Positions 1,235-63,400 of a stretch of DNA of 64,000 nucleotides are shown piece by piece. The notes beneath the pieces were generated by a model. That model had not been told where the DNA came from. It did not search any database and saw only the letters and a list, made by a program, of their open reading frames with translations. The translations under genes were made by a program, and so were the position numbers. The stretch spans positions 18,326,303 through 18,390,302 of the forward strand of contig CM082577.2 of assembly GCA_040954595.2 (NCBI GenBank), in the 5' to 3' direction. The stretch comes from Balanoglossus misakiensis (Eukaryota; Animalia; Hemichordata). Position 1 is the first letter of the stretch; each line of letters starts with the position of its first letter.

Positions 1235-1365
1235 TGAAACAGTTTGCCAATGCTATTGGTTCACCATGGATCTACTTATCCTGTGTTTTTTTAAATTGAC
1301 AAAATTAGGTCTTTAAGGATATTGTGTCTTTTTTTTGGGAGGGGGTTATACAGTAATCACCATAA

Positions 1366-2973: not shown

Positions 2974-3349
2974 GCTGAGTCAACTTTGATAGTTTTAATG
3001 CAAAAATTCTTAACAAATGTTTCCTGTATAAGGCTGCGCAAATTCAAAATTATGTTTGACGTCACCTCAAGACCCCAAAACCTAGGGGGGGGGGGGGGGG
3101 GGGGGGCGGTTTACAAAACAAACTAATTATAGATTCCAAAATATGCAAATTACATATTATGAGAAATTTAAAGCAAATATCCATTTAAGAAAACCCTTGT
3201 CTTTCAACTTTTAACATATTTCACATACAAGATTCATTCCACAGATGTTTACCATGTCGTGTTCAAAGATAGAGATTAAAACAGTCAATTTGAATAAATG
3301 CACATGAGCATATATCAGTTCAACAATATTTTATTGAAAAAGTTGGGTT

Positions 3350-36781: not shown

Positions 36782-38648
36782 TGCCTAGGTGCCACCGGGA
36801 TAAGCAATCAGCGAGTTGATTCTGAGCGCCTGGTAAGTGCTGGGCTTTCAATTCAAACTGAAAGGATGCTGCAATAAACCAAAGTTCACGCGCCGCTGTC
36901 ATAAGGAAAGGGTCACGACCGCGACCAGCATTGAGAACCTTAACTGTGCTGGTATTGTCGCTGTACACCAAGATACGCAAGCCAGTCCATTGGCTCCCCC
37001 AAAGACGGGCCGCGACAACGACTGCGAGCATTTCCAAGCAGTGGATTGGGAGCCGTTTATGCAGAATAAGTTCTGGAAACGTTGAGTGGAAGTACTGCGA
37101 ACCGGAAAGTCCCCCGCAACCTGAAAGGCACGCGTCTGTGCAAACAATGCTGTTAGGAGCGGACCAAGTTAAGTCAGGCATGATAGAAATCCCATTGAAC
37201 TGCCTAATGAAAACAAGCCACCAATTAACATCTTTGTGAAACTGAGCATTTAAGTATATGTGGTGACTTGCGGACTCCACAGAGCGCAAGGTGTCCAGCA
37301 TGCGGCTAATGAAAAGACGGCCCGCGCGGATGCAGCCAGCAACAAAGGAAAGTTTGCCGATTAGAACTTGCAAGTCTCGGCGGGTGGCTTTCCTTCTGCC
37401 CGACCAATCAAGGAGCAGCTCAGTGAGCTCGGTCAGCCTGTCGTCTGTGACCTCCAATGTCATGGCTACTGTGTCAACCTGTATACCTAAGAAAGAGAGA
37501 CGTGTGGTCGGTGGAACCGCCTTACTGGTGGCTTCTTCGACACCCAATTCTTGCAGAAGTGACCGCAAGGCCATAAACGCAGGCTCTGAAAGTGCCGGTT
37601 TCTCGGCACCGCAAAAATCGTCCAAGAAATTAACTGCTCGAAAACCTAAATTGTTGTACATAGAAATAATAGTGTTAGTTGTGGCCTGGCATGCAAGCGC
37701 TGCCGAACGCAAACCAAAAGGCAGACGGAGGTCAATAAAAAGCCGACCCCGCCAAGTGTAGCCCAACAGGTGAAAGTCATGCAGGTCGACGGGTAACTGC
37801 CGGTACGCCCTGGGCAGATCAAGCTTGAAAAGGTGACACCCAGGACCCAGTTCCCTGATGAGAGCCACAAGTGAGTCAATATTTGGGTAACGAAGCTAAA
37901 AATGATGCCCCAGGAAAGTAGACTGAGAAATACCCGCGTTAACCGAAGTTACAGGGGGAAAGCTGAGGTCCATAATAGTACGTCTATCGGTGGACCCTTT
38001 CTTCGGCACAGAAGAGAGTGGGGATGTCGCCACGGGTAGTGAGAGGGAGTTGTAGTCAAAAGGACCAGCGGTTGCGCCTAGACTAACTTCAGTACAAACA
38101 AAGGAATCAATGTGCTGCGCAAAATGCAGGGCGGAACCGTGGTTGCGTCCGCTCGAAAGAGGAAACTGACTAGCGGTGAAATTGACAGGCCAGCCAAATT
38201 CCAGAAAGTCAATAAAAAGCGCACTGTGCTGATTGGGTAAACGTGCTCGCCAGGCGGGGATATTCAACGCTGATGGCACGGGAATGCGAACGCCCGCAAA
38301 GTTGGGCCTACCGGATGAAAAAACAATCTGATGCGTGTCGCGCAACCACTGCGGGGAAATACGGGCGCTTGGCGGCCAGAGGGGGATGCTGGGAGGGATC
38401 CACGCCGGTGTTTCTGGGGGGTTGAAACTACTGGTAGCCGCTGACTGGGAAAAAAAAGACTGGTACTGAAAGTCGTGTATACCCTGAAGTTCATGTGCTA
38501 ATGCAAGGGGAGTGGAAACAGATGGGGCAATTGCGAGCACGTACGTGCCATCAATATCAGGAGAATCCTGACAACAAACTACTGAATTCAAAAATACAGC
38601 GCTGTCAGCAGAAAGGTGACTACGGTCAAAACGTACACTATCCTGCAA
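36684..38648 (-). pseudogene. Ngaro RT-RNase H, broken by an in-frame TAG at 37896-37898
   Basis: IDFLEFGWP, KLDLPRAYRQ, LPFGLRSA, NFLDDF, TDACLSGCGG, CLEMLAV, SDN, LADCLSR. ORFs 37896-38648 and 36684-37868 are in the same frame. Confidence 0.9.
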
Positions 38649-38854
38649 AGGTACAAGTCTTCAAAAGTGAGAACATCACTGTACAAGTGGGCGCTAGGCA
38701 AACTATTAACATAACTGCGCGACTGAGAGGCAACAGAGCTACAAGGAATGGGTGGTGGTCTATCCAGACTAGTTTCATATAGCCTGGAATGTGGTGAGGG
38801 AGGAAACGAGACCGAAGGGCCAGAAAAGTCATCCCGTTTCCCCAAAGGCTGGAG

Positions 38855-40026
38855 TCATTCCTTGTTGCCCCCCTGCGTCTTTTCCCGAAATTCTTTCTCG
38901 TTATATGGACAATCGGCAGCGGCATGTTTCTTTTCTTGTTGCCTATAACGCAAACAGGCGGAACAAACATGTTTCTCCAAGATGCCTTCCACCATGTGAT
39001 CCTCAGCCTGAATACACTTGTGGATCTGAAAGGCGGAACAATACCTGGCACGACGGTTTTTCTTTGGCTTTGTGGCTGAGGTGGAAGTGCTCTGTGGAGG
39101 ATTTCTAACAAATCTAGTGTGGAGGTTATCAAAATCATCCTCCCAATTTAACAATCCTTGCTCCAAATATTGCAACACTACTGAGTGATATTTCCCAATT
39201 ATACAATTGTGCATCTATGACAATGTCTTGCAAATGAGTCAATCTATGCAAACTAGAGTCACTGCCAAACCCCATCCCTAAAATGATTTCGAGTTCACCG
39301 GCCACTAATTGTGGTAAGACAGTTCATCGTATGCCAAGGCCTCTGGCCTGTTTGGGTTTGGGTCGCGGACAAATTCATGTGGCCATGGAATGTACATCCG
39401 TACTCTGTCCGTTATAATGGCTTCCTCCTTGCGCCACTTTTCATGCGTTTACCTTTGGGAATAACATTCTGCAACGGGGATCGTCTGCTTTTGGCCTGTG
39501 TGCGAAGTTTGGTTCTGCCTTTCTTCGCTGCTCTTGTACCACGCTTGGTGTCCATATCATCGCTGCTGGAGCTGCTGCTTGCTTCGGATGCTGAAGTGTT
39601 GGACGAACCGCTCGATAACAAACGTTCGACGGAGTCCTGGAGAGCCGAGTCACGTCTAAGGTCGGCTAGAGTGGAACGAGGTTGCTCGGTCTTTTCCCGC
39701 TCACTAGTGGCTGTGACGTCATCGTTTTTAGGTTTCACAAACTTCATCACCTCGGAAATTTGGTGGAAAATCTCTCTTACTTGAGATGTCACAGAGTCCA
39801 ACTGCTGTTGCACTTTCGGGTCAGTCCCGGAACGCTTACTTGTAATTTTCTTGCGTGTCATTACGTTGTACATGTAAGCTGGCTGTTTTGGGCAGTTGCG
39901 CCGTCGGGCAACTGTATCCATTTCTGCTCGTTCTGCTACAGTTCCCGCCTCGAGTTCTGCGAAGGTATCTTCAACTTCTGATGTGGGCTGAGCCGATTCG
40001 GCCATTTCGGTGAAAATTAAAACCAA
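38855..40026 (-). pseudogene. Ngaro gag-like ORF1, frameshifted
   Basis: Segments 39412-40026 and 38855-39214 are linked by shifted-frame WPHEFV..YDELS..LVAGELEII. C-terminal Cys/His cluster YCSAFQ..C..H..HVCSAC..H..C. Confidence 0.7.
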
Positions 40027-40124
40027 GGAGAACTGAAGAGCTGTGGATACCGGTACCGGATCAGCAATATCAAAGTCCGAAAGCTTTTAAATATCTCAGT
40101 ATCTCAAAACCAGGCAGGAGCTTG

Positions 40125-40285
40125 ATCCCCTCAATAACGATGCCTAGAAAAGTAATTTGTTGAGATGGACCAACCACTTTATGCCATGCTATGTGAAAAC
40201 CTAATTTGCGGAGAAGCTTGAGTAAAGTGTTGAGCGCTAATTGGCAAGCCTGATAGTCAACTCTGTTTACATACGCAATAAACAT
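40125..40285 (-). pseudogene. Fragment of a second, divergent DIRS/Ngaro RT
   Basis: LLKLLRKLGFHIAWHKVVGPSQQITFLGIVI resembles LRSLLQELGVEEATSKAVPPTTRLSFLGIQV of the neighbouring RT. Confidence 0.7.
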
Positions 40286-41639
40286 TGGGTAATCCCTCTG
40301 GATGAGCGTGATTGGTCAGAGATAGAGGGATCACCCAAGTGGCTATGCTCCCTGATGTTTAAACTTCATTAAAGATTTTAATGCCGTCTTACGGCTCGGG
40401 GGGGGGGGGGGTGGGCGGAAAGTTTGTGTCATGGGTTTCAAAATCAGGCCGACCCCCCTTCACCGAGGACCAAAAAATGATGACCCCCCCCCCCCTTGAC
40501 AGGCCAAAAACAAAAAATATGATGACCCCCCCCCCCCCCACGCCGAAAACATTCACCGTCCTGATCCTATGTACACTGTATGCTATAAAGGGAATTCCCT
40601 TTACTAGGTCAATGATGAGATTTGGAAGAGAGTTCGTGTGTGGCAGTCTAATACATATCTACCAGGAAAGCCAGATGTGTGGATATACCCGTACGTGGAT
40701 ATGTCAGCCATACCTGGGAAAGATGCCAGCTGGAAATCTACTGATCTCAGGGGCAAAAACTCTCTTCTGGCTGTATGATTGCCCAAACATTATGATTATT
40801 TAGGTTCATGAATATGTTATGCATTGAAAGAAGAACATTCTACCGTCATCAAAGGCTTTATCTTCAGCCCACTGTTATGACCACTTGAAACTCATAGACC
40901 AACTCAAGCACATGGTAGGAGGATTAGTGATCCCATTCACATCAGCAACCGAGTTGAAACATTCTGTCTGGTAAATGTAATCGATCTGGCATCAAGTTAC
41001 CTGTACTTCTCCAACAAAATCAGAGGAGATGCCAGTACCATTAACAACCAAAACCAGCCAGGAACTGCAAATGCTACCTATTAACCCCAAGGAAAACTCT
41101 ATACAACAAATTCAAGAGAAACTGGTTGACAAACTACTTCAGCTACACTACATTTCACCAGTCAATCAACACTATCACTTTCGTTTAAAATCGGGCCAAA
41201 TTTTCTCAATACTAAACCCAGGAATCGACAAAAAAATATGCCAGTAAATTTCACTTTTTAATTTTGTGTTGTATTTACATTGGTAATTTCATTCCATACA
41301 ATAACCTCTATAAGAAGCTCTCCCAACCAGTGACAGTTAACAATTTGGTTTTTGCTTTTAGTATGAGAGCAAGGAAGCTAAACATTATTAAGTGCACTAG
41401 AAAAGTTTGTTGTTGAACATTTGACAATAAAACATCTAGTGATGTCCGCTGCGACTCCCCTGGCTACAGTGCTAAATACCATATGTTGGTGAAGTTATTG
41501 ATTTCACAGATACTCAAGTTTCCTAGGTAGCCAATTTAAATGCTATGGAGAAGACTGGCTTCAAGAAAAACCCCTGATCGAATTCTGGCCGCCGAAGTTC
41601 CGGTGGTTACCATGGCAACTGACAGGCATTTGCAATGCT

Positions 41640-42340
41640 ATGGAGGTCCTTCATTGAAGATCAGAGTGAAGTGGAGAGGATACCAGCCACCTCTAAGCTG
41701 TACAAGGAATACCAATGGCTGATGAGGCACCTGTGTCTTTCTAATGGTTGGGAGGTCCCAGAAAAGTTCTCGCTTAAGCCACCAAACTCCCAAGCTGTTA
41801 TCATCCATTGGAGAATTATCTCTATTTTGATTAGCAGAATTTCTCCAGAGCAAAGGAACCAGTTTCGTAAATTACTTGATTCATTCCATCGACAGCAGTG
41901 AGGTCTGGGGTAGGGTCGGCAGATATCGGAAATCCCGACCAATCCAACAGGGAAGACACAGACAGACCACAGGAGAGCCAACAGTCTAACATCACGATCC
42001 CAGTCCCAGCGAAAAAGATGGAGGCTGAGACACAGGAAACAGAAGTGTTACCAGAGGCATGGGATTCACATTTCCACCTTGATCGCAAAAGTAGATGCTT
42101 GTTTAGGAAAGTGACATCAGATGAGCTACTACAAGCACCAGATCTACCCATGCTGAAACATCCACTCCATCCACGGGATCGAAGTTTATAGCGAACCAGA
42201 CCAATATCCATCCGACCTCAACAGGAGAGAAAGATGGAAGGTCGCACTGGGGGTACATCCAGCGATTGACCGATGAGGGGTTCTGAAAGCTTGGAGAACT
42301 TACCCTGTCACCTGTGGTGATCGCCCTCGGAAAAATCATG
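41640..42340 (+). pseudogene. Degraded homologue of the Gypsy TatD-like accessory gene
   Basis: MRHLCLSNGWEVPEKFSLKPPNSQAVIIHWRIISILI aligns with MKRLCVFQGWEVPNKFPLNPPTTPAILIHWRVLSVLL (ORF 51089-52531). It continues with WDSHFHLDR and VALGVHP, with stops and frameshifts. Confidence 0.85.
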
Positions 42341-43589
42341 GAATAAGAAGCTTAAGAAAGATGGCAGAAATATAGAGTAAAAAGAATAGAAGAAAAGAAG
42401 CAGAAATTTTGTTTAAATTTTTTTTATTGTAGTTTCATTGTTGAACAGTAATACAGGATTTTAAATTCACATAGCAGGCTGGAATGTGCGTGTTTTTAAG
42501 TCATGAATGAAAATCCAATAAATCCGCCACTATTGTTACTACTATTGTTACCAAATGTATGGAAGCCCAATGTGGGTAAAATTCACTATCAGCACAATGT
42601 GGAAATTGAAAGTTGCATACAACAACGCTGCTCATGGACGAAGTAGTGCGAGCTCTATGTTTGTGACGAACAGAATTGATACATTCGATGCCCTGCATAG
42701 AAGGCGAATTTTTAGTCTCAAACAAAGACTTTAGCTGAATGTTGCATTTTTATGAACTCAAAAGCAAATTATCTCAATGTTTGGGAGGACCAATTTTACT
42801 TTTTGCCACTCCACTCAAAGTTAGAAGATTTGGCGTCATCTTTGTCATGACATCATTTATAAAACTTCTAGTATATAGAAGTGGGGTTGGGGTGGCAAGC
42901 ACTCTGCCCTGGTACACTAGCCAAACCAGCAAAAAACGAAATGTGGCAGAGAATGAAGGGGGTGGGTGTGGGAGGGGGTGTCCCCCTCGCACATTAGAAA
43001 ATTTTGTAAAATAAAGGGCGCGAAACTGCAATTTTGTGGACTCAAAAGCAAAAGTTCGGTGGCAAAAGTATGTGACCCCCCCTAAACGTTTAAAAAAAAA
43101 GATGACCCCCCCTTTTGGACTTCAAAATTAAAGTGACCCCCCCTTGGATTTTGCCACCCCCCCCCCCCCCCCCCGGGCACTATTTTTTGTTCAAAACAAA
43201 TTTCTTCTCATGCCACATTCTGTGCTCATACCTTGTATTGGTGCGATTTGATACAACAATACACAAAGAATTTCATCACCAATCACAGTATAAAAACTAA
43301 GATATCTTAATATGTTTACGTTGTAACCAATTTCTAAAAATTATATGATATGATATGAAACTGAAAATTGGGATCCAAAATTGTGAATTTGGTGAGACCT
43401 ATTGTGTTAAATGAGGGAAATGACAATAATTTGTGTGAGGCAATTTATGTATGAGGGGGAGTTTTTTATACTAAATTATGGCACATACACACCAGGAGAA
43501 ATTGCCATGGAAATGGCCTTGAGGTTTTATGACCTCTACTGAACATGTCAAAGAAGTGCTGAATCCCATCTTGTTTTACTATTTCACAG

Positions 43590-47345: not shown

Positions 47346-48151
47346 TGCAGCAGTTCAACTTTAGCAAGTACCCACATGCGATTCCCCGTGTTAGACTAAT
47401 GGGATTTGGTTTGAGGAAAGAAATAACAAACAACAAACAGAACGAGAATTACAATAGAGCGAGAATTTGTGGTAATTTACGAGACTTCGTTCGGCATGCC
47501 TCAGAATCGGTACAATTTCCTTTGATTGGTGAAGAATCGCTTGAACTTGCGGGAAAAATGAACGTATCCACAGGATTCACTAACCATCTATCCTTCCCAG
47601 GAGGCAGTGGCATGAAACACTGTGCGACCGTTTGTGAGTAGCGAGCGATTAATGGTCGCAATGCGTGGCCGCGCAGTTCTAAAGTAATACTCGCCCTACA
47701 GGGGAGAATACTACTCGCGGTTGCACCGGCCGTGTATATATTACCTACACAAAAGCGGTCGATGCTTATACTAACTATGACTAAATACTTAACCCTTTGC
47801 TGCCCAGGGCACCCTCATGCGCCCGACATGCGCTGCTGTCCAGAGCACCCGTATCCGCCCGAGATTTCCTTCTTCCGGGTTTGGGAAATTCCATCCGGGA
47901 TAGCACGCAAAGTACCCGCCTTTTGATTATGATAATGTGGTGACGTCTGGTTTATATCCGGGACCTTACTTTGACGTCAATGAATATGTATGTTCCCATT
48001 GGATAAATTTGAATTACAATCGTTTGAAGTTGTTTGCCGCCTACGCGTCACGGAAAATTATCATAACCGCTGACCTCTGTAGTGTAAAAATATTCACGTC
48101 GTGTACACTTTCCACTTTAACCTTTTACACGACCTATATTAAACAACAACA

Positions 48152-49849
48152 ATGGATCCCGGCCGTGCTAATGCGGAAGTAATGAGGTTTCTTTTGGACG
48201 ACGACGACGATGAAGAATTTCTCGGTTTTCCAGCGGAGGATACGGCCAGCGACATCGAAATCCGCGAAATCAACGATGCGCTGCGACAAGTTCTCGAGCT
48301 GGAGAATGAGAACGACTTAGAAGTCCCGGAAGATCTGCGTAACATCCCGTGGTCGGCCGATCTAGAAAATTTTGATTTACCAACATTTCTCGTAGGCGAA
48401 TCAGGGCCAAACCACAACCTGGCGGCAGGTTCTCAGCCTCTTGATTATTTTTTTTTACTGATTCCGCCGTATTTTATACGACGCTTGGCAGAGGAGACCA
48501 ACCGTTACGCCGATCAAAAACAGCGCGCGACGGGCATCGACCGCTATTGGTATGACACAAAACCCGACGAAATCAAGGCGTTCATCGCGATCAATATTTT
48601 GATGGGAATACACCAGCTTCCCAACATCAACTTGTACTGGTCGACTGATGACAGGCTTCAGGTCCCGGGCATAACCAAAATTATGACCAAAAACCGTTAT
48701 AAGAAGTTGTGTCAATACTTTCACGTCAACGATAACGAAGCCGACCAGCCAGCTGAAAACCCTCACCGAGATCGCATGCATAAGATCCGCCCGCTCCTCG
48801 ACGTCGTCCAGCTCACATTCCCGGCAAACTATGTCCCCTTTCGCGAGATTTCCATCGATGAGGGAATGGTAAAATTCAAGGGGCATAGCTACATGATTCA
48901 GTATCTGCCAGCGAAACCAATCAAATGGGGGTTCAAGCTTTGGATCATCGCTTGCCCCCGTACCGGGTACTGCCTCAACCTCGATCCGTACACCGGGAAG
49001 AAAGGTGGTCAAGTCGCCCAGAAAGGTCTGGGATATTCGGTTATTTGGCAACTGTCGCACATGTACCACAACATGGGGCACGTTTTATTTTATGATAATT
49101 TTTTTAGTTCAGTCGGGTTAGCCCTCGATCTGCTAAAATCGGGTACGCTTTGCTGCAGTACAGTTCGGCCAAACCGAGTTGGATTTCCCGTCGATCTCCG
49201 GAATGTAAAACTCGATAGCAACGCGTCAAAAACTCGCCAGTTTGGGAAGCTGACGGCAACTGTGTGGCAGGATAAAAGACAAGTTACCACACTCCAGCCT
49301 GAGTGTGTAACAACAAGACGGCGAGCCGGAGAAGTGTCCTGTCCCAAGAGTATTGTTGACTACAACAAATATATGGGCGGTGTCGACCTTTCAGACCAAC
49401 TCGCGACCTACTATCCTTTGGGCGGAAAGCACTTCAAGTACTGGAAGTACCTGTTTTGGTCCATTCTAAACAGGGCAATCTGCAACGCCTGGATTTTGTA
49501 CAAGATTGCCAATATTCCAGCTCCAAGACGAAGATACCGCCAGCTGGATTTCCGCCTAGATCTGTGTACACAGTTGACAGCTGGATTCAGTGGTAGAAAG
49601 CGACCAGGGCCATCACCAGCTCCTGTCCTACTTCCAGCGTCGCTGAGTGCGGATAATTTTCCCGGCCACCAGTGCACAAAATTGGACACTTCCCGGCAAA
49701 AAAAGGGCTGTGTTCTTTGTGCTAAGCAAAAGAGGAAGACGCAGTCTGGCAGAGCTGTCCAAACAACGTGGATGTGCTGCAATTGCAGAGTAGCCCTTTG
49801 CAAAGTCGACTGCTTTGCAAAGTACCATGCCATCCAGTACCAGGCATAA
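48152..49849 (+). CDS. piggyBac transposase (PGBD4-like), 565 aa
   Basis: DDD triad SIDEGM, FYDNFF, GGVDLSDQ; KPIKWGFK; C-terminal Cys-rich domain CVLC...CCNCRVALCKVDCFAKYH. No stops. Confidence 0.95.
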   Translation: MDPGRANAEVMRFLLDDDDDEEFLGFPAEDTASDIEIREINDALRQVLELENENDLEVPEDLRNIPWSADLENFDLPTFLVGESGPNHNLAAGSQPLDYFFLLIPPYFIRRLAEETNRYADQKQRATGIDRYWYDTKPDEIKAFIAINILMGIHQLPNINLYWSTDDRLQVPGITKIMTKNRYKKLCQYFHVNDNEADQPAENPHRDRMHKIRPLLDVVQLTFPANYVPFREISIDEGMVKFKGHSYMIQYLPAKPIKWGFKLWIIACPRTGYCLNLDPYTGKKGGQVAQKGLGYSVIWQLSHMYHNMGHVLFYDNFFSSVGLALDLLKSGTLCCSTVRPNRVGFPVDLRNVKLDSNASKTRQFGKLTATVWQDKRQVTTLQPECVTTRRRAGEVSCPKSIVDYNKYMGGVDLSDQLATYYPLGGKHFKYWKYLFWSILNRAICNAWILYKIANIPAPRRRYRQLDFRLDLCTQLTAGFSGRKRPGPSPAPVLLPASLSADNFPGHQCTKLDTSRQKKGCVLCAKQKRKTQSGRAVQTTWMCCNCRVALCKVDCFAKYHAIQYQA

Positions 49850-50094: not shown

Positions 50095-50794
50095 GACAGA
50101 AAGAAGGAAATGAAACCTTTAACTTAATAGTAAAAAGAAAGAAATTACTGTTAATAATGTGAAAAACTGACAAAGAGACCTGTAATTTAGTTTTATTTAT
50201 TCTCATTCAAAACTAATTTCCTCTTCACCTGAAACAGAAAGTGTAAAATGCACAAAACCTGCTTTCCATGAACTATAGTTGAATGGAAACTTTCTGGACA
50301 CATCACATGCCACACATCATTGAAACGGGAATTTTCAGAACTGTAAAATAAATTTTACCTGCTACAGTCAATTCCCAACCATTTTTGAGCAAATTCTGGT
50401 AAAAACACACACCTAATTTTGATTGCACAATCTCACTAATTCAGTGAAAAGTTCTGGGCTCCACTATGCATTGTTATGCAAATGAGCTGGGCTGCAAAGG
50501 GTTAACTATCTTAAACGCTATATAAAGGTGAGACAGAACTATATGTGAAAGCTTATAAGGATATTACTTACGTCTTGATAGATATCAGGTACAATTCGGT
50601 CTATCGGATCTCCAGCTCGTCGGAACGGCGTGCTTTCCCCAGGTCCGCCCACACTGCTGTTGGCCTCATCCATTGGTGCTGCCCCTGTCAGTCAGATCTC
50701 CGTGCTCCGCCTTCCACGGTCCTGGCTGGCTGTCGCCCTGGGCAACCTACTCCGGCTGCCAGTCATCCGGGGGTCCAAATGTAATTCCACTACA

Positions 50795-50814
50795 CTCGTC
50801 CTTCTTTTCTTTTT
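50795..50814 (-). promoter_or_regulatory. Polypurine tract
   Basis: AAAAAGAAAAGAAGGACGAG directly followed by TGT on the minus strand. Confidence 0.75.
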
Positions 50815-51088
50815 GGGAGATCCTCCCTGGGGCTATATGTCGGGTAATGGGAAGCCTGAAACGGTGGGGTTCCCTGGAAACGTTCGCCGGGCTGGTCCTG
50901 AAAATAAAAAGATCTTGGGTGGCTTGCCCGCGGAGACGGGCACCAGAATACTCTCTGATATTAGATTCCAGCCAGGGTGGCCGGATTGGGTTTTGTGGTT
51001 GTTTGGCATGTATTTCCTCTGCCAGAAGCGGATGTTTGGGTAGGATCTTCCTCCGTCAGTGACGGATTTCACACTCTGTTTTGTTTCT

Positions 51089-53322
51089 TCAGATCTGGTA
51101 CAGACGGCGGGCGTTTTCGGCCGTCTGCGCCAACAGCTGGCGAGTAGAGGTACCTCGCAGTCTGGCTACCTCAAGTGCTACGTCCCCAAGGAAGGCTGGA
51201 GTATTCATCCTCTGGGACTCCCACACGCGTCTGCTGGGCGACTCGGTCTCCACTAAGATCCGGTCCTCCGAGATAGCCTGCATGGCTTCAATCTGTCGCT
51301 CATCAAACTGGCGGACGGCTGCCGAGAACCCAAAATAGGTCTCGGGGAAGTACCGCCGCCAGTCTCCCACGGTCTCCATACATCCTCGGAAATCCCGGAG
51401 GTGGATCTGCTGGCGCTCGTCGCAGTGCCTGGTCATGGTTAGTAGAGTCCAGGCTGCCGTGTGTCGGTCATACCTGTCGTTGGAGGTTCCCCGGGCGGTG
51501 ATGACTACTGGCTTCCTTCCCGGGTTCATGGTTAACAGGTCTTCGAAGACCCTATCTTGGCCTTCCCAGGTGGAGGGGTCTTCCGTCCGGTCAAGTCCGA
51601 TGTCCCCTAGTGCGGCCACGTCTGGGCGCCTCAGAAGATTGCCGAGGGTCTGGCGTTGATCCTTGGTCATGTATGGTGCCACTCGTGGGTTAACTCCAAG
51701 GGCTATTGGAAAATCTTTTTCCCCCGGCAGCGGGTCCGGGTACCGATCCGGCTCAGAGAATACTTGTAGCCCTCCGAGGAGCCGGATTCGATAGTCTGGA
51801 AGGACACCAACATCGTAGTCAGTGAGGTCTTGTGGAGTTGTTGGAGCGTCCTCCACCCTACATTTCTCGGCGCAGGCCTGAGGGTAGAAGCAGGCATCGA
51901 TTCCCCCGGGTGTGGATGGGTCCCGGGCTGCTGTTTCGGGTGGCTGTGTCCGGGTTGCTGCTGGTCTCCGGGGCGGTTGGATTCTCCAGAACTCGTCCTG
52001 ACGCGCTTGTGATACCCATCTGAGCAACACGCTCAGCACGCGCCAGTGGATGAGGATCGCTGGCGTGGTGGGGGGGTTCAGCGGGAACTTGTTTGGTACT
52101 TCCCACCCCTGAAACACACACAGGCGCTTCATCATAACGATGCTCTCGGGCGAGCACAGGGATTCCGAAGGGATTTTTCCGGGTCCACCCCTACGAATGA
52201 ACAGATCCAACAGGTCGGGTATCTCTTTCCCGGGACCACATAGCCAGTAGGTCAGCTTTTCCAAAGCCTCCACCGCGTCCCGCTCGCGGAATACCTCTGG
52301 CCTCTCAACAAACAGTTCGGGAAGGTGACGGTGAAATACATGTTTCTTCAACTTCCGTGTTGACATCCGGCATCCCGGGAATGGACATGGAGAGGGGCCA
52401 TACGAGTAGCGTGGACCAGGGGGTGGGGAGTTTCTTCGGGTCGGCCTGGTGCTCCTCCATCGGTGTTCCTCCATCGGTGTTCGGTTTGTCTGGGCGGTTC
52501 CGGCGTTGGGTACCGGATAGGTGAACGACACCTGGGGCTGAGGTCTCCCCAGCGCGAATGGGATGGTCGTTCGCGGGAAGGCGGGCGGTCCCGCCTCTCC
52601 TCTCTAGCACGACCCGGTCGAGGCGACCGGGTTGGGGATCTGGACCTAGTGGGGAATCCGAGAAATTCCCGGAGATCCCAGGGGATATCGATTTCCCCCA
52701 CCTCCGACATCTCCTCCGGCGCTATAGGCCGGATCAACGGCTGCAGCGGTAGCGTCTCCTGGCGTGGGGGTGGTGGCTCCTGCAGAAACGGTCGGCCACT
52801 TTCTGCTCTTGGGGGTGATCCGTGGGTGGGGGGTGGTTCTGGCCCCTCCAACACCTCCATCGCCTGGTCTTTGTCGCCACCGAGTACCTGTCTCTCCTGC
52901 TGTGGGTCCGGGAAGATGCTGAGGGTTTCTTCCTGGTCGTCAGCTGCGGTGGTGGTTCTGGGGAGCTCTTGCAAAGAAAGACTGCCGACGAACCCTCCCC
53001 GTACTCGGCCTAGGTTGAACTCCCGGGGGACTGTGGTTTTCAGGGCTGTGGTGCGACTCTTCATGGCTATGTCGGGCGCGGGCAGATGGGCGTTAACTTT
53101 TTCCTCTCCGTAGATCCGGATGGCCTCCTCCCGTGCGATGGACATCCACCCCACGTCCCCAATTACGGTGGCCACTTGGAAGTGCTCGTGGAGCATTTCG
53201 AACATGGTGTCCTCGTCCATGCCGAGGTCTCTCAACCGGGGGATCACACTGATGGGGTCCAAGAGTTTCCCCTTGCCACATCGGAAACGGATGTCCTCCA
53301 ATTGACGTTGATTTGAATCCAT
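51089..53322 (-). pseudogene. Accessory ORF (~739 aa when repaired): helical N-terminal domain, Pro/Arg-rich linker, C2H2-like finger, conserved helical domain, TatD-like amidohydrolase fold
   Basis: ORFs 52348-53322 and 51089-52531 join in frame if the 14-bp tandem duplication CCTCCATCGGTGTT (52454-52481) is removed. TatD-like motifs ALGDIGLD, KPVVITAR, YFGFS, RILVETESP, TAENARRLY. Confidence 0.85.
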
Positions 53323-53369
53323 TCTGGGGGGGGGGGCAAAAAGAAAAGAAAGAAAATTAACGGTTAGTG
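53323..53369 (-). promoter_or_regulatory. Splice acceptor immediately upstream of the accessory ORF
   Basis: CACTAAC branch point, ~30-nt polypyrimidine tract, then CAG|A ATG. Confidence 0.75.
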
Positions 53370-53434
53370 GGTCCTCGTCGGTAACGAGTCATAGTCCTAC
53401 CCGATGGCAATTTCCCCTTTTTCCCTCTGTTCCC

Positions 53435-56400
53435 TTACTCATCGGTTCCCTCCCCCACGCAGTTCGGACAGTGAAAGGGGTCTGTCGATTTGACCTGTTT
53501 TGGGGAGAGATTGACGCAGGTGCTGTGAAACCAGTCGTAACAGCTGTCACACTGGACCATCAGCTTCCCGGTGTCCGGCCCACGGCAGACACAGTATGTC
53601 TGCCCCCGGTCTTTGTCCTGCGTGTCAGGATCCCCACCCTTCAGGGGTAGTGACCTCTTGAATTTAACTATCCAGCTGGGCAGTTGCGCGTCCCTGCACA
53701 GCTTCATTCTGTCGTGGTTTGCGGTGGCCATGCGTCTCGGAAATTTCACCCGGTACAAGTATGGCGATAGTTTCGCTATCACTATTCCTGGTCCTTTCCA
53801 TGGTGGGCTTAGTTTTTTACACTTCCCTCTCACGGTCGCTGAGTCCAGAAGGTAGACGGGGTCTCCGACTTCATATGAACTGAGACGGGCCTTCAAGTCG
53901 TAATCTCGCTTCATTCTTTCCTGGGTGACAACAGTTTTTCCCGAGCGAGCTCATGGGCTTCCTTCATGGTGCTTCCCAGGTTGCTCGCATATTCTTCAGG
54001 GTCTTGGGCTGGCGCTGGTTTCCCGAAGACCAGGTCGGCCGGTTGGTTCACTTCCCGCCCCAGCATAAGGCGATTAGGTGTGAATCCGGTATTTCGGTTT
54101 ACGGAGGTCCGAATGGCTCCGGCGATTTGGGGTAGGAATTTGTCCCACTCGTTCTGTTTGCCCTGGACGAAACAGCGAACTGCATCCATGAGGGTCCGAT
54201 TTTGCCGTTCCACCTGGCCGTTCGCGGACGGGCGGTACGGCGTGGTCCTAGCCTTGTGTATTTGGAGCAATTCGCATACTGACTGGAACAGCTGACTTTC
54301 GAAATTACTGCCTCTGTCGGTGAATATCTCAAATGGACATCCGAATCGAGAAAAGAATTCCCCTACGGCTGCCGTAGCGGTCACCTCTGCCGTTTGGCTA
54401 GGTAGTGGAATGCACTCTACCCATTTGGTGAATTGGTCGACCATGACTAGGATATATTCGTTTTTTCGGGGTGTCCGGGGCAGTGGTCCAAGAAAGTCCA
54501 GATGTACCCTTTCCATTGGCGATCCCACGTGGTACCGGGTCAGGGGGCACCTCGCATGCCGCTGTGGTTTCTTGTGCTTGTTGCAATCGTTGCATGAGGC
54601 TACGAAGCTGCGGACATCATCTGCCATCCGATGCCAGTGGTACTTCATCTGGAGTCTGGCCAGCGTCCATTGCACGCCCTGGTGTCCTGCCGAGGGGATT
54701 GCGTGATTCAGTTCAATTACTTCCGATATCATTTTTCTGGGGATGACCAGTTTTCCTTCGCCCTCGTCCTCGGATTTCCTCCGGAGTATTGGCATCTTCG
54801 GGTCCACATAGTATATTTCTCGGTTTATCCAGGCATTTTTTGCGGCGGGGCTGAGTAGTGCCAATGCGCTCTCTGCGGGAGTTTGGCCAGTATTCAGCCA
54901 TTCCAGTATCGGCCGTAGATCGGCATCTTCCCGCTGTCGTCGGTATATGGTGTCCAGGGTTTCCCGCCACGGCGTCTCGATCTCTGGCGAGCTGCTCCTA
55001 GTCACCGTGCATATCTTGGGGTCCTCTTTTTCCGCCTGTGTATCTTCACCGGAGGTCGTGTCCTCTCCCCTGAAGTCTATTCCGATTGACTTTAGTATTT
55101 CGTCGAAATCGAATCCTTCCCCGGGGTCCTCCGGGGGGTCTGCGAGGTGGTCATTCGTCTCGTCGTCTTCGTTGCCTAGGTTTACCGCGCAGACGTCTTG
55201 TCTGATGTCTTTGGATGGTTGTGAGGCTAACGGTATTACTTCGTCTACCTTGGTCACGAAATCTCCCCAATTTCTGTGCGCTCGTTGGCAATAATCACAG
55301 CCGCCGCAGGGAAGTTCGTCCGGCGTAACGTTGTGACGGTAGTGTCGGCACTGCCCCTGCGGTTCGATTCGGGATAAGGCATCAGCGTTGAGGTGTTTGT
55401 TCTCAGGCCTATGCTGAACCGTCATGTTGTACTGGCTAAGTTCCTCCAACCATCGGGCCAATTGTCCTTGGGGTTCTTTAAACCCCAGCAACCAGGCCAG
55501 ACTGCTGTGGTCCGTCCGTATTATGAAATGGTTCCCCAGCAAGTAGTGTCGAAATAACCGGGTAAATCGTACTACCGCTAGGAGTTCTTTTCGGGTCGTA
55601 CAATACCTTGTTTGCTCGGGTGTTAGCGCGAAGCTGGCGTACGCGATTACTCGCTCCCCTCCATCCTGCACCTGGAGAAGTTCCGCTCCCACGGCAATGT
55701 CTGATGCATCCGTGTCCAATATGAACGGGTCTTTTGGGTTCGGTAATGTGAGTACCGGCGCTGATGTTAAGCGATCTTTTAACGCTTCGAAGGCCAGCTG
55801 TTGCTCTTCGCCCCACTTGAAAGGCTTTTTTCCCGTAACTGTGTACAGCGGGGCGGCCAACTTGGCATGATCCTTTATAAACGAGCGGTGATAGTTGGCT
55901 AAACCTGCGAAACGTTCCACCTCCTTGGTGTTTTTTGGCGTCGGCCAGTTGCGCACTGCGTCAACGGAACGCGGGTCCAGTCCTATTGTTCCTTTACGGA
56001 CAATCCGCCCCAGGAATTCCACTTCCGTCTGAAACAGCTCACACTTGCGGGGGCGTAGTTTCAACCTGTATTCTCGTATCCGGGTGAACACGTCCCGCAG
56101 ATTCTGGAGATGGTCAGCAAAGTCCGCCCCAAGTACCATGATGTCGTCTAAGAATGCAAATACTACCTCCCATGTCAGCCCACGCAGCACCAGATTCATG
56201 GCTCGCGAGTATGTGGCGGGGGCGTTGCACAGGCCGAAGGGCATGCGGGCGAATTCAAACAGTCCGTACTTTGTGGTAAAGGCGGTCTTCTTGCGGTCAT
56301 CTTTGTCCACTTGTATCTGCCAGTACGCTGAATTGGCATCTAGTTTCGAGAATCATTCATTCCCGGCCAGCGTGTCCATGCAGTCTTCGATCAGCGACAG

Positions 56401-57972
56401 GGGGAATACGTCTTTACGGGTCACGTTTTTCAGCGCCCGATAGTCAACGCACCAGCGGACGGTCCCGTCCCTTTTCCTTACCAATACCGGTGCCGATGCC
56501 CATTCCGATGTTGAGGGTTGGATTACCCCTGACCGTAACATTTTCTTGAGATGGGCTTCCTCCTCCCCCGCGAAACGCAGTGGGGTTCGGCGCATCCTCT
56601 GTTTCACTGGTCGTGCATCCCCCGTATCGATACCGTGCGCAAGGGCGGTGAAGTTCCCCAGGTCGTATTCATTTGCAGCAAAGACATCCTGGAACTCCAT
56701 AAGTAGCTCTTTCATTTCCTGTGACTGGTTCTCCGTCAGATTGGCTGCTGATTTCTCGGCCAATTCTCTCAAGTGGTCTGGGAGCTCGTCTTCGCCATGC
56801 GGTGAAGCTTCCGTGAGTAGTTCAACCTCGCTGACTGTGCCTGTGGCGATTTCGATGTCTTTGGTTAATGTCCGAAGAAGCTTTCCCCCGACTGCTGTTG
56901 CCACTACTGTTCCCGGCGGTATTGTGACGTTGTCATCGGTCGGGTTTATTAAACAGATGATTGGGGGTTGCCCCTTTTTACAGAATGTCCGGGGCATAAT
57001 GAGGTCACCTAGTTTCACGGGCTCCACTATGTAGTTGGGCATGTCCATGTCGATTGTCCCTGTCACCCTGGTCACGGAGTTCGGAGACAGGATAGTGCGT
57101 GGAGTGACTGATATGTTGGCCACGTGCGTCACAGCGGTCTGGTCCCCTTGCAGCAACGGGAGCCGCTGTTCTCCCACCTGGAGGGTGTTTTCTCTCATGT
57201 CGAGGATGACCTGCTTGGATCGAAGTTGGTCTATTCCCAACAGCATGGTGTCGCCTATGGGGCCCACATATATATTTTCTCGAAAGGCAGTGCTCCCCAA
57301 CTTCAGGTTCACTGGTCCAATTTTGAATCCTCTCATGGACGAGTCTCTTCCGGCTAGTTGTACTTTGACATCGTGTATTATAGGCGGTTTCGGCTCTAGG
57401 GTGTCGTACAGCCTGTCGGAAATTATTGTTATTTCTGCGGCCGTGTCTAGGACGGCGAGAACCTCGGTCCCCTCGACTTCTACGGTGACTTTGTACATTG
57501 AACTTGGGGAGATTTTACGGATGGTCACGCTGGGGGGAGCGGTGGTGTCGCTTTGGTGGCTAAGCTCGATGGACATTGCCGGTTGGGGCTGCTGATTGCC
57601 GTCACTGGCTGGCTCGTTCTCCGAGTTTTCGATCAGCACCTCTTCCCGGTCGACGAGATATAACAGCTCCCTCTCTGAATTCTCTTCCAGCGCTTCAGTC
57701 ATCACTGCCCCGAGTTCCTCAAATTGTCCAAGTTCGCCATCGGTTGCTTCTCCGTCCGAGCCATCGCTGTCTTCTGATTCGGAATCAGTTCCCGGTGGAC
57801 ATACCGGGGGTAAGTTGGCATTGCTGGCAGACGGATTACGGCTCCCGGTGGCTCTGTCTGTAATGTTATTTTCGTCTTCCTCCACTGGCTCCACATCCGC
57901 GTTCCTCATAAGGCCAATTCCGGTGACTTGGGTCGGGCTTAGGCTTCTGTGACCGACCCGTACCGGTTTAAC
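53435..57972 (-). pseudogene. Gypsy pol: protease, RT, RNase H, integrase, PHD finger
   Basis: LDTAAEITII, MPFGLCNAP, FLDD, DTDASD, HH-CC integrase finger, HLDFLGP/TDRG/VERQNR, WKGP, YCVC..CDSC..WFH..C..CPNC. In-frame TGA at 56353-56355 (Trp expected) and a frameshift near 53928. Confidence 0.95.
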
Positions 57973-59357
57973 TGGCATTGAAAGACACGCGTTTCTGTGG
58001 GGGTTCTGGCTTGGTGTCCGTTGACAGACGCGGACAGTCCTTTTTGAAGTGGCCTTCCTGACCACAGTGGTAACATCCGCGGCTCCTGGGGGATGGTGAT
58101 CGGCTGGTTGTACGGGGTCGGTTGCCCCAGTTCATACGAGTTAGCTGATTAGTGAGCATTTCTACAGCAGTGCCCAGTCCGGACATCTGCGTTTCCACCC
58201 GGGCTAGGTGTGACTCCATCCGTGACAGGCGTCTATCCATAACAGGACTGCCCTCACTGGGTCGGACCTTGGGTTCGGTTGAGGGTGTGTCGCGCTTCTG
58301 TCGTTGGGGGGTGGATGCTGACTGTACTCGAGCTATCTCCTCGGCTTCTGAATCAGAACTGAGTCGGCGCACTTCGCGTTTTGGTGAGCGGCCTCCGAAT
58401 ATCTCTTTGTTGTTGTACTGGTACCAGCGTATCTGGTCGATGGCTTTCTCCATGGTCTGGGGGCGCTGTGTGGCTGCATTCAATCCAGCCTCTCTGTCGG
58501 CACAGCCCTGGCAGACCTTAATGATCGCTTGCCTAATCATCGCTTCCCCATCGCCATCGGGATAAGCTTGTGCTGCCAGGATGAGAACTCTGTCTGCCCA
58601 CTCTTCCAGGGATTCTCCTGTGTTTTGTCGGGATTGATTGAACTTCATTTGAGCGGCCTCTGGGAGTTCACAGTACCCAAACCTTTTCTCCATTTTTCGG
58701 ATTACCTCTTCGTAGGTGATGTTTTTCCCGGGGCCGGCGAGTGTTGTGTAAAACATACTGGCCCTTCCGTCGAGGCACCAGCAAAGTTGGCTTTTCCGTT
58801 CCCGGGAGGTCCACGCTTCGATATCCGCGTACTGCGTGAACTTGGTATAAAATGCCTGTCAATTTCCTCCCCCATTGTATACTAACGTCTTCGGCAGGTT
58901 GACAGATAGTTGACGGTGGACAGGGTGATCTGTTTTCCTGCTTGGGGTGTCGACATTTTTAGGGAGAGTGGATGTCTGCGTAGTTGTCACTGCTGAGGCC
59001 CCAGTTCGGGCGTCCGGGCTCTGCGTCCCCAGTGCTGGTCCGGGATCAGACTGATATTGTGGTGCTGCCCCCCGATAGGGTGGTGGGGGGGGGTATAAGG
59101 TAGCGACTGTCGGGACTGTGGCTGCTGCCGGAAGTATGGACCCCAGTTGTACTGGTTGGCATCCACCTGTTGCTGTTGTTGTGGTTGGGGATAGGCGCCC
59201 CAATTGTATCCGCTGACGTCCAGCTGTTGTTGTTGTTGTTGAGGGTGTGGTCCCCAACGGTACTTGCTGGCGTCTGGTTGTTGTTGCTGGGGTTGTGGCG
59301 GATATGAGCCCCAGCTGTTTTTAACGTCTGTTTCCTTTTGACTCTGGCCATACTGGG
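57968..59357 (-). pseudogene. Gypsy gag, disrupted
   Basis: Gln-rich repeats, capsid-like RQNTGESLEEWADRV, knuckle CYHCGQEGHFKKDC. In-frame TGA at 58859-58861 and at least one frameshift. Confidence 0.85.
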
Positions 59358-59538
59358 TGTGTGTACTGAGACATTTGATTACTTTGTGAATGGCGCCCTC
59401 TGTGTCAAGAGGTGGGAGGTGGGTAGCCTCGTTTTGGAAAAAAGACGCCATCTTGTTTTGGGGTGTTATTGTCGATGTCGAGCATGGTCTGATGTGAATA
59501 AAGAGTCCATAGAAATACAGTTGTGTGTAGACGTTTCA
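59358..59538 (+). repeat. Putative 5' LTR of the second Gypsy
   Basis: Ends in CA just before the PBS and contains AATAAA and CGCCATCTT. The TG start at ~59358 is inferred from where the opposite-strand gag stops looking gag-like. Confidence 0.6.
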
Positions 59539-59539
59539 A

Positions 59540-59553
59540 TGGTGGCAGCGGTG
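59540..59553 (+). promoter_or_regulatory. Primer binding site, tRNA-Leu type
   Basis: TGGTGGCAGCGGTG is complementary to the 3' end of metazoan tRNA-Leu(AAG/TAG). It lies 1 nt after the LTR-terminal CA. Confidence 0.8.
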
Positions 59554-59559
59554 TAAACG

Positions 59560-60417
59560 ATGGCCAAAAAAGTAGAATATTTCACCGGGGAGGAGAGAGG
59601 AGAACTGGAACCTTGGTTGGATAGATTCGATGCTATCATTGAGGCAGAAGGTAAAGAGAACAAAGCTGCAGCAATAATACGCACGTGTTTGAAAGGAGAT
59701 GCAGCGACCGTAATCCAATTGCTGTCGGTAGATGACAAAAAGGACATAGATAAGATAAAGGTAGAGTTGAGAAAACATTTTGGATTGAAGAGAGATGAAT
59801 TGTCAGCACAGCGGGAATTTCATTGCCGTAAACTGGAATCCGGGGAGAGCATTGGGAAGTTCGTGCGTTCCCTAAGAAAGCTTGCAATTGAAGGATTTCC
59901 CAAATGCGTTGGTAGCGGATTAGACTCAATTATCAAAGGTCAGTTTATCGTCGGTCTTCCTAGGGAATTGGGCGACCAGTTATCTGTTGCCTTACACTAC
60001 AAAGTTGCCGAAGCGGAGTTAAGTGAGGTCGTGGATTTTGCCACGAACTGGCAAAAATATCAGACAAAGGAGAACACTATTTCTGTTGACAACGTCATGC
60101 AAGTAGGGGAGGTCGATACAACCGTAAGTAGTGTGGTACGCGAGGCTGTTGAATCTGCAATTTCAAGCTTAGAGCCAACAATTTCAGCAATGGTTAATGC
60201 GCAAGTTAATCGGGTGTACGGAAACCAGAGCAACCAACAAAGAGGTAGTGGTAGAACCAGTCGCTCATCAACAAGGCCTGCACAGACAACTGGTAAGTGT
60301 TTTGAATGTGGACGGTTCGGCCATTTTAGAAGAAACTGTCCTAATCGGTTCCAGTGTTTCAAGTGTCATCGTTACGGACATAAGGCAGCCAATTGTCCTG
60401 AATTTTACCCAAACTAG
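59560..60417 (+). CDS. Gypsy gag, 285 aa
   Basis: WLDRFD, GESIGKFVRSLRKLA, QFIVGL and two CCHC knuckles. Confidence 0.93.
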   Translation: MAKKVEYFTGEERGELEPWLDRFDAIIEAEGKENKAAAIIRTCLKGDAATVIQLLSVDDKKDIDKIKVELRKHFGLKRDELSAQREFHCRKLESGESIGKFVRSLRKLAIEGFPKCVGSGLDSIIKGQFIVGLPRELGDQLSVALHYKVAEAELSEVVDFATNWQKYQTKENTISVDNVMQVGEVDTTVSSVVREAVESAISSLEPTISAMVNAQVNRVYGNQSNQQRGSGRTSRSSTRPAQTTGKCFECGRFGHFRRNCPNRFQCFKCHRYGHKAANCPEFYPN

Positions 60418-60451
60418 TGGGAGGTCGGGGCGCTGGCCAGCCCTTGACCTC
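60408..60451 (+). promoter_or_regulatory. -1 ribosomal frameshift signal (gag-pol)
   Basis: C CCA AAC heptamer in the gag frame, a 6-nt spacer and the stem GAGGTCGGGG...CCTTGACCTC. pol is in the -1 frame. Confidence 0.8.
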
Positions 60452-63400
60452 TGTTGAGAAGACGGCCATGGATGGTCTGTGTACTGATGATCTGGTGAGT
60501 GGCAATGTTCGGGGGACCCCGGAACTGCCTGTCCGGGGCCTTAGAGCCTGGGGATTGCCACATGACCAGAATCAGTATCATAGTCAACAAACTGTTACCG
60601 AACAACAAATGAACAACGATGAACTCTCACCCCAAATATTAACCACAATGACTTCACGCACATGCGGCGACCAATATAGGACTACGGGTATGATAAATGG
60701 AGTTGAGACGCCCATATTCGTAGATAGTGGTTCACAAATTACCATAGTCAGAAGTGATCTACCAGCCATAAACGGGTTGCCACTGTATCCTGTGAATATT
60801 CAGCCAGAAGCAGTTAATGGTACACCCGTATGCTTTGATGGCCAGGTACAAGTCGATCTTACTGTTCAAAATTTTGTCATTGGTCCAACATGGGTGTATG
60901 TAATGTCTCCAAAGCTCATGCGTAATGAATTCTTGATGGGAACGGATGTTATGGAAAAACTGGGAAGCATGGAAGTTGATTTTGTAAAGAAAACTGTGAC
61001 TTTCAAAGGACTGACACAACCTAATACTTACCTCAACAAACCTGTAAATAACAAGATGAACTTGAAACCACAGTGTTGCCGTGTGACATTACTACAACGA
61101 GCTGTTATACCACCTAGACATGAACAAATGTGTCATGTACTTGTCGCAGCTATACCGGGACAACAAGGACTCATTGAAGGTAGTGATCAGCTACTTGAGA
61201 AAAAACACGTCGCTTGTGCTGCCTCACTTAACACTTTGGATAAGGACAGAACAACCTGGGTTAGATTATGCAACCCAAATCCTATATCTGTTAAATTGTA
61301 CAGGGGATCCAGTATTGCCGAGTTCACGCCTGATGTTGGCCAACCCACAGTAATTGAACAAGTATGTGTTGAGAGCGACACACCTAAGCCAGAAAGTAAA
61401 CAGGACCATGAAACTATTGATTCTTTGATAGAAAGAACAGATGTGAACCAGTCACAAAAAAATGAAGTTCATAAACTTGTTGAGAGTTTTGAGGATGTGT
61501 TTTCATGGAAAGGTGAATTTGGAAGAACTCATATTATAGAACACAAGATACATACTGGTATTGCACCACCACTTAGATCAGGTGCTAGGAGAACGGGTTA
61601 CCACGAGAGGGAGAAAGTCGACAAAATGGTGACTGAGCTATTGGAAAAGGATGTTATTGAGGAGAGTTCCAGTCCTTGGGCTAGCCCAATTGTCCTTGTA
61701 CCCAAGAAAGATGGGTCCTTACGATTTTGCATTGACTTTCGTCGATTGAATTCGGTAACTAAGGATGATGCATTTCCCTTACCGCGTATTGACGATGCCA
61801 TAGACTGTCTTGGAGGGAGTAAATGGTTTCCCACGTTAGATATGGCTAGTGGCTACTGGCAAGTAGGTATGGATAAAGAATCTAGGGAGAAGACAGCATT
61901 TATATGTCACAAAGGACTATATCAGTTTAAAGTCATGCCATTTGGACTTAAGAAGCACCAGCTACATTTCAAAGACTCATGTCGTCCATTTTCAGTCCAG
62001 AGATGTGGCATGTTCTACTTATATATCTGGATGACATCTTGATTTTTTCATCAACATTCGAGCAGCACTTGCAACGAATAGAGCTGGTATTCAGAAAATT
62101 GCGTGAGGCAGGACTTAAGCTACAGCCACGAAAGTGTCATTTCTTTCAAACTGAGATTGAGTATCTTGGCCAGCTTGTAACTCGTCATGGGGTGTCACCC
62201 AGTCAAAGAATAGTCAGTGCTGTTGCAGAGTTTCCCACACCTACTTCAGTAACAGAGCTTCGCAGATTCATAGGACTTGCCTCGTATTATAGGAGGTTCA
62301 TAGCAGGATTTTCAACTATTGCAGCCCCGTTACACAAGTTGACTTCAAAGGGTGAGGTATTCATTTGGACAACAGATTACCAACAAGCATTCAGTGAACT
62401 GAAAACTAAGCTGTCAAGTGCTCCAGTTTTAGCATACCCTAACTTTGATGTACCATTTTCGCTGGTAACTGATGCCAGTGGGGTTGGAGTTGGTGCTGTT
62501 CTTGAGCAAACAGTGAGTGGTGTAACCCGACCAATAGCCTATGCTAGCTCAATTCTCACGAAAGCGCAACGCAATTATTCAGCGACAGAGCGTGAGTGTT
62601 ATGCGGTGGTCTGGGCGATTGACAAGTTTCGGAGTTACCTCTACGGAACTAGATTCAACATAATTACGGACCACAGATCATTAACTTTCCTCAAGTCAGT
62701 GAAGGAGCCAAGGGGCAGATTGGCACGGTGGCAGTCTGAACTGCAAGTCTATGACTATGAGATATTACACAGACCAGGCAAAGCCATACCACATGCTGAT
62801 GCACTTTCACGTGCCCCATTGATCGCAGTTACTACTGTTCAAGGGAAGTGGTCTTTTGACGAGTTGAAAGCGCTGCAAGAAACAGACCCAGTTATAAACA
62901 GAGTGCGTGACTTGGTTCGATTGAAACAACTCTGTACACCTGGTGATGGAAAACGAGTAAAGGAGTTAATGCTGCGTGCAAGAGGTCTTCATATTGACAT
63001 TGGTACAGGGCTTCTGTGCTGTCGATACTATGTTGGGAGGAGAGAATGTATACAGGTAATTTTCCCAGACTCTCATGCTTCTGAGGTTCTGCCAGTGGTA
63101 CATGATCAGGAGGGTCACTTGGGAATCAAACGCACATTAGCCAAACTAAAGAAGTCGTTCTATTGGCCGGAGATGAGACTTAGAGTACAGGAGTGGTGTC
63201 GCAGCTGCATACAGTGTAATCAGAACAAGTTGCAACTGAGAGGAAAAGCCCCATTGCAACGTATGCCTGAACCAACTCGACCATTTCAATGGGTCAGCAC
63301 TGATGTATTTGGACCCATCCCAGCCACCAAGAAAGGAAATCGCTACATTGTAACCATAAATGATGGCTTTAGTAAATTTGTTGTAGCTAAAGCAATACCC

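Follow-up and report, generated by a model that had tools for sequence, protein, structure and literature searches.

The active site of a TatD-fold domain has been lost in the third gene (ORF3) of a minus-strand Ty3/Gypsy LTR retrotransposon lying in the window, the 64-kb stretch of repeat-rich DNA analysed here (judged to be animal from its satellites, transposons and the names of homologues), and this loss in a retrotransposon accessory gene is real, selected and recurrent. Judged by sequence and model, the domain has the properties of a pseudoenzyme, with the catalytic residues lost, the fold apparently kept and the coding sequence under purifying selection. The barrel, likely non-cutting and joined to a conserved zinc-finger domain, has probably been retained for a non-catalytic role in binding or scaffolding.

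Organization of the element

The gag, then protease, reverse transcriptase (RT), RNase H and integrase order of Ty3/Gypsy was recognized in the element through Pfam matches and reading frames, and ORF3 formed a separate open reading frame between pol and the 3′ end on the same strand (Table 1). This copy carried one stop and two frameshifts in total. The premature stop was located inside RT at 56353-56355, the PHD part was frameshifted relative to the integrase core (the two were in the same frame in the related loci L005, L007, L015, L017 and L021), and ORF3 was frameshifted upstream of the TatD domain, where the frames 52348-53388 and 51089-52603 overlap. These two frames were taken as one gene because the upstream frame matched both the N-terminus of P0007 (E 3e-6, one of 151 homologues) and L007, where ORF3 is one frame of 907 aa (E 9e-7). 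The TatD domain itself had no stops, as an earlier sequence-only reading of this DNA had stated, though that does not extend to the frameshifted part of ORF3 upstream.

Table 1. Features of the ORF3-bearing element, motifs of its TatD domain and a related fragment in the window
Feature	Position	Strand	Evidence or remark
gag with CCHC zinc knuckle	57968..58858	-	Pfam; 5′ part disrupted
pol: aspartyl protease and 5′ part of reverse transcriptase	56353..58131	-	Pfam, reading frames
pol: reverse transcriptase (3′ part), RNase H, integrase	53911..56352	-	Pfam RVT_1, RT_RNaseH, Integrase_H2C2, rve
Integrase C-terminal SH3-like region and PHD finger	53435..53950	-	Pfam PHD, E 7e-10
Predicted splice acceptor (pyrimidine tract and CAG)	53324..53356	-	Sequence
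ORF3 5′ part: short helical domain, then proline/arginine-rich linker	52348..53322	-	ATG at 53322
Helical domain with C-x4-C...H-x4-H zinc-finger-like motif	51968..52399	-	C73, C78, H88, H93
TatD-fold domain, C-terminal part of ORF3	51089..51905	-	Seven canonical active-site residues replaced; E452 and R371 kept
Motif DACFY	51898-51884	-
Motif GVNP	51697-51686	-
Motif GDIGLD	51607-51590	-
Motif VITARG	51505-51488	-
Motif HLRDF	51403-51389	-
Motif ETESP	51250-51236	-
Element 3′ non-coding end, presumed 3′ UTR and LTR	50506..51088	-	Multi-copy depth from near 50505
Broken fragment of a different ORF3-family member	41644..42270	+	Keeps DSHFH and GVHP

No repeat pair representing paired LTRs was found within the 64-kb window, and the 5′ end of the element was interrupted by another element. 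A second Gypsy element, on the plus strand at about 59460-62042 and back to back with the first, seems to be responsible for this interruption; it contained gag at 59557-60417 and protease/RT at 60402-62042, and the sequence TGGTGGCAGCGG, which follows CA near 59540, resembles a primer-binding site. A minus-strand frame with repeated glutamine-rich units (58987-59451) upstream of the first gag is probably a disrupted gag N-terminus. Other repeats were also observed in the window. An open 568-aa piggyBac-like transposase frame lay at 48143-49849 on the plus strand (DDE_Tnp_1_7, E 4e-80, with a C-terminal zinc finger), frames resembling a DIRS-type element by eye (tyrosine recombinase, RT/RNase H) lay at 35630-40086 on the minus strand, integrase-like and HECT-like frames recognized by eye at 22742-24246 (+) and 29364-31080 (-) possibly belong to another mobile element, and positions 1-21950 were occupied by a large tandem satellite with units of ~238 bases in blocks of both orientations.

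Context of ORF3 in related loci

The same layout was common to relatives. In the metagenome scan, 80 of 191 confirmed loci were kept and 29 of them were assigned to the ORF3 family by eye; many of these share contig-name prefixes and probably come from few hosts. Of the family loci, 15 extended 1.2 kb or more upstream and were informative, and 13 of these had a Gypsy integrase or PHD finger preceding ORF3 on the same strand. None of the 52 other loci (L001 included) gave a gag or pol hit. Viral contigs gave only that one locus, L001, without the finger domain and without a gag or pol hit. In L017, a terminally redundant contig, the order was integrase-PHD-ORF3-gag-pol, so that the contig closes on itself as a collapsed LTR element would. 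Since the metagenome loci were found by intact-motif patterns, their mostly intact ligand states are uninformative on frequency. Among the ligand-lost proteins described below, the genomic context is that of the window copy, and the other 14 were seen as proteins.

An acceptor-like pyrimidine tract with CAG ended 1 base before the ORF3 ATG, and in 5 of 13 related loci a similar site was found no more than 10 bases from the first in-frame ATG, a count taken without a null control. On these sequence features, we infer that ORF3 may be expressed from a spliced subgenomic message.

Zinc-finger domain

The helical domain preceding the barrel contained a CCHH motif that was complete in all 62 intact rows and all 9 ligand-lost rows with coverage (106 aligned). 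Its predicted structure was confident (pLDDT 95.5). No Foldseek hit at E≤0.001 was obtained for it in PDB or BFVD, the best VIA Z being 3.6, and this absence need not mean a new fold. In the ESM Atlas, the whole protein brought up only generic TatD clusters (0.77) and the finger domain clusters at 0.90-0.91, which gave no lead.

Active site of the TatD domain

Residues were numbered in the stop-free minus-strand frame 51089-52603 (504 aa from stop to stop). The domain matched Pfam TatD_DNase with an E value of 4e-23 and 82.5 bits against a cut-off of 27. The AlphaFold2 model built from 106 sequences reached a pLDDT of 89 and matched the TatD structure 6l25 in Foldseek with an E value of 3e-13, so that both the TatD sequence profile and, in the model, the TIM-barrel fold were retained.

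The six altered motifs listed by the sequence-only reading were all found in this one frame, and the alignment to E. coli TatD/YcfH which it had proposed bore out the ligand replacements. When aligned to S. aureus TatD/YcfH and to E. coli YcfH and TatD, N305, D334, T369, R403 and E454 fell on the H, E, H, H and D sites; that is, D334 occupied the site of the bridging Glu, T369 and R403 those of the two metal-B His, N305 that of the phosphate-binding His and E454 that of the distal Asp. In the alignment to the family homologue P0003, DACFY aligned with DSHFH and C238 and Y240 fell on HxH. Neither the class II HxH nor the class I (G/A)xN motif was present at the N-terminus of the TatD domain. 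In class I TatDs, activity does not depend on an HxH motif. In the window protein the five histidines and the two canonical acids were all replaced, for which no fewer than 10 substitutions in 21 bases would be required. The claim that every metal ligand had been replaced held for the seven canonical sites, but two of the seven changes were acid for acid (E to D, D to E) and E452, the E of ETD, was kept, as was R371. The equivalent of E452 in E. coli TatD, E201, is described as a needed metal ligand in the available text of PMC4176340, while E220 of TATDN1 is placed outside the metal sphere and called dispensable in that of PMC10085689.

Outside the ligand sites, 44 columns are conserved in 80% or more of the intact rows; the window protein kept 35 of these and 0 of the 7 ligand sites (Fisher p 1e-4), in agreement with the earlier remark that flanking structural residues are kept. 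We predict that R403 occupies the second metal site and prevents metals from binding. The net charge of the TatD domain was -7 versus -0.3 +/- 4.1 in intact relatives.

Selection among sister copies

Sister copies were taken from one sample, probably the window's own source. The element was dispersed and multi-copy there, with 240 and 177 contigs at 80-100% likeness and a depth far above that of the unique flank; depth was 55-150 over 50106-50505 and 290-3260 over bins from 50423 to 51127. Between 51225 and 51915, 79 differences passed the filter. The 40 of these 79 that were listed, seemingly ranked by share and so favouring changes common to several copies, comprised 30 silent and 10 replacing differences against 153 silent and 480 replacing sites, giving a pN/pS of 0.11, or 0.14 with transition weighting (p<2e-9). 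In a second comparison, differences were listed in 15 codons of the frame, and 13 of these were silent.

The ligand codons showed no difference among those listed. A 95%-alike contig spanning N305 and D334 had 8 of its 10 differences listed, none of them at N305 or D334, and the 8 of 19 listed for an 89%-alike contig were all silent and flanked D334 on both sides, with none in D334. No difference at T369 or R403 reached the listed shares, which began at about 27%; the codons of C238, Y240 and E454 lie too near the stretch ends to fall within reach of the comparison. The sister-copy test suggested earlier therefore came out on the side of purifying selection, with the replacements at N305 and D334 common to sisters and pN/pS not near 1. 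The loss of the active site appears to be lineage-wide and under purifying selection, though this copy itself is broken upstream.

Recurrence of ligand loss among homologues

A full HMMER scan gave 1456 matches at E≤0.001, and the best 150 of 1456, with 27-46% identity, were used; among these, as in the other protein searches, identity nowhere rose beyond about 46%. Word-index protein searches gave only 2 and 1 matches. Where the clusters of the 20 homologues looked up carried names, these were those of a hemichordate, an oyster, a pearl oyster, a gastropod, a brachiopod and a bacterial bin. Two family members, P0133 and P0162, come from short contigs of Candidatus Thiodiazotropha bins, under the name 'TatD family hydrolase', and are likely host transposon DNA in symbiont bins.

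Among the 151 homologues (P0003-P0153), 127 were ungapped at the seven sites and 125 were scored after P0078 and P0095 had been dropped as misaligned. All seven ligand sites were kept in 98, four to six in 13, and three or fewer in 14; the window protein was the only row with none. At least four sites were thus lost in 14 of 125 homologues versus 0.35 expected under independent losses, although relatedness among the rows keeps this comparison from being strict. In the 15 ligand-lost rows taken together (the window protein included), 27 of 105 ligand sites were kept versus 318 of 390 strongly conserved other sites, and individual ligand-lost rows kept 68-84% of the conserved columns versus a mean of 91% in intact rows.

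On a quick IQ-TREE tree, with ligand columns left out and the root not inferred, the ligand-lost state required 11 changes, of which at least 5 were forced by branches with SH-aLRT of at least 95. A single origin of the dead form was thereby rejected. Loss rather than gain is the likely direction because cellular class II TatDs carry the full ligand set. The window protein had no supported sister. Two ligand-lost clades had open frames, which points to a long-lived state: P0005 and P0026, 63% identical, had one common set of replacements, and in P0109, P0130 and P0133, 51-54% identical, the replacements differed. Within one clade the pocket residues read CQREKHN, NHKEKTY and NHSEKQY. Lys or Arg occupied a His site in 9 of the 15 ligand-lost rows, which is only a hint as the rows are related. 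R371 was kept in 8 of 15 ligand-lost rows versus 95 of 98 intact ones, and E452 in 14 of 15 whatever else was lost.

Armed and disarmed lineages share this genome, because the fragment at 41644-42270 keeps DSHFH and GVHP; no gag or pol hit was found near it, in 40000-43500.

Function of the disarmed barrel

In the mechanism we propose, a TatD of class II (HxH) would have been acquired by an ancestral element and, like env, translated from a spliced message. The zinc-finger domain and the surface of the barrel would supply what the element requires of ORF3, making cutting optional; lineages losing one metal ligand would then lose the rest, and the window lineage would have gone furthest. Candidate partners are the ends of the element's RNA or cDNA and host proteins of silencing or repair. 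The net acidic character of the domain makes us favour a scaffold for protein or RNP rather than a tight DNA binder. Direct support for a nucleic-acid-binding role is thin (net charge, and R371 in about half of the ligand-lost rows), and stronger nucleic-acid binding in the ligand-lost form was discarded since charge gave it no support.

The sequence-only reading had gone further and proposed selection for a binding or decoy role. Such selection may have acted, but the replacements vary among and within dead lineages, a released pocket fits as well, and such variation would favour a freed pocket more than a selected decoy. We regard as rather unlikely the bolder version in which a recurring zinc-finger/TatD decoy, its barrel disarmed, protects the element's RNA or cDNA ends by capping or shielding them, or else blocks the TATDN nucleases or silencing factors of the host, and so serves as the counter-defence protein of a widespread, unpublished invertebrate Gypsy clade with armed relatives in the same genome.

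The earlier naming of the domain as a pseudo-nuclease is likely right, but D334, E452 and E454 are still carboxylates, and residual Mg-dependent activity is possible from these three residues. In a rewired active nuclease, they would form a Mg/Ca site and R403 would contact phosphate, and 3′ ends would be trimmed, perhaps weakly or on a different substrate. The available text of PMC4176340 reports that three acids are essential in E. coli TatD, while H127A and H152A kept activity, and that of PMC10085689 that TATDN1 was barely affected by H149A or H174A; the three essential acids remain acids here, D334 is common to sisters, and the distant P0005/P0026 clade also keeps D-E-D with Lys at a His site. 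However, only 3 of 15 ligand-lost rows keep the three acids, and the retention of E452 regardless of other losses points to a structural role. The published tolerance concerns single mutants rather than five histidines at once, the equivalent of His62, which is important in E. coli TatD, is Asn, and the bridging Glu shortened to Asp would be expected to move both metal sites. In TATDN3, Asp loss alone cut activity 30-fold, and the bridging Glu was needed in both human enzymes, as far as the same text of PMC10085689 describes. A rewired nuclease is unlikely on this balance.

A barrel retained as a passenger, only for the folding or stability of the fusion, would leave all function to the zinc-finger domain and eventually be deleted. 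The completeness of CCHH in all fully covered rows while the pocket drifts freely, even within a clade, would fit this, as would the somewhat fewer conserved columns of the ligand-lost rows. But the barrel is C-terminal, so that one stop would remove it, and yet it is full-length through 37-49% amino-acid divergence in the ligand-lost clades, and silent changes predominate across it, which makes this explanation quite improbable; the homologue searches used queries with the barrel included and thus covered ORF3s that carry it. Random decay of a dead insertion that chanced on the active site would suit the RT stop and the integrase and ORF3 frameshifts of this copy, but is extremely improbable, since the closest contigs differ by only about 2-3% (5/284, 5/272, 4/127), at least 10 changes in 21 bases have a chance of 3e-12 to 1e-5 at 2-10% divergence, and sisters differ mostly silently while sharing the tested N305 and D334 codons at 89-95% likeness with the fold kept. 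The sequence-only reading, too, had argued against random decay.

The non-catalytic binding or scaffold module therefore stays the probable reading. Non-env accessory genes of LTR retrotransposons are barely understood, and this family gives natural armed and disarmed pairs of several origins, in which cutting would be optional and the zinc finger and barrel surface the working parts. A further suggestion from this family is that transposon cargo accounts for some of the genes labelled 'uncharacterized' or 'TatD family' in the genomes of invertebrates and in bacterial bins associated with hosts.

Comparison with known systems

No published TatD in an LTR element, TatD ORF3 or TatD pseudoenzyme was found in a literature search covering the main texts of openly accessible articles; as far as that search goes, this would be the first described pseudo-TatD, and it makes ORF3 function directly testable. 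A mention of TatD in PMC6962438 proved to be a gene label rather than a precedent, and no word beginning with 'nuclease' occurred in PMC6238403 or PMC13524379.

By its sequence, the window ORF3 would work like an accessory ORF3 and derive from a class II TatD, and it falls outside the enzymes by its active site. TatDs have been co-opted elsewhere too, QatD in bacterial defence reportedly being another case. With the class II (HxH) TatDs (TATDN2/3, E. coli YcfH/YjjV and S. aureus TatD), as described in the available text of PMC10085689 and PMC4176340, it shares PF01026, the TIM-barrel and the GxxP, GxIGLD and ETxSP scaffolds. The full class II HxH/H/E/H/H/D set is kept by 98 of 125 transposon-borne relatives; the window protein, in contrast, is without the five His, has both canonical acids swapped, and is transposon cargo rather than a host gene.

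The closest parallel in organization is given by the bdelloid rotifer LTR retrotransposons Juno and Vesta, whose non-env ORF3s, in the portion of PMC5408684 available, encode a DEDDy exonuclease or a GDSL esterase. They resemble the window element, also being of Gypsy type, in that pol is followed by a third ORF derived from an enzyme, with nuclease cargo, and differ in that the window ORF3 is a TatD barrel fold fused to a new zinc-finger domain. The rotifer ORF3s are described there as having intact catalytic residues and as near-neutral within the genome, whereas the window ORF3 has lost the site and is under purifying selection. The same portion mentions non-catalytic GDSL derivatives in Athena-L elements, and also Maelstrom and EXD1, inactive DEDD derivatives that keep RNA binding and act in piRNA pathways. 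Like these two, the window protein has a nuclease fold without catalytic residues in a setting of transposon-host conflict; but Maelstrom and EXD1 are host proteins of another fold, while here the protein is element-encoded and a binding role is proposed for it.
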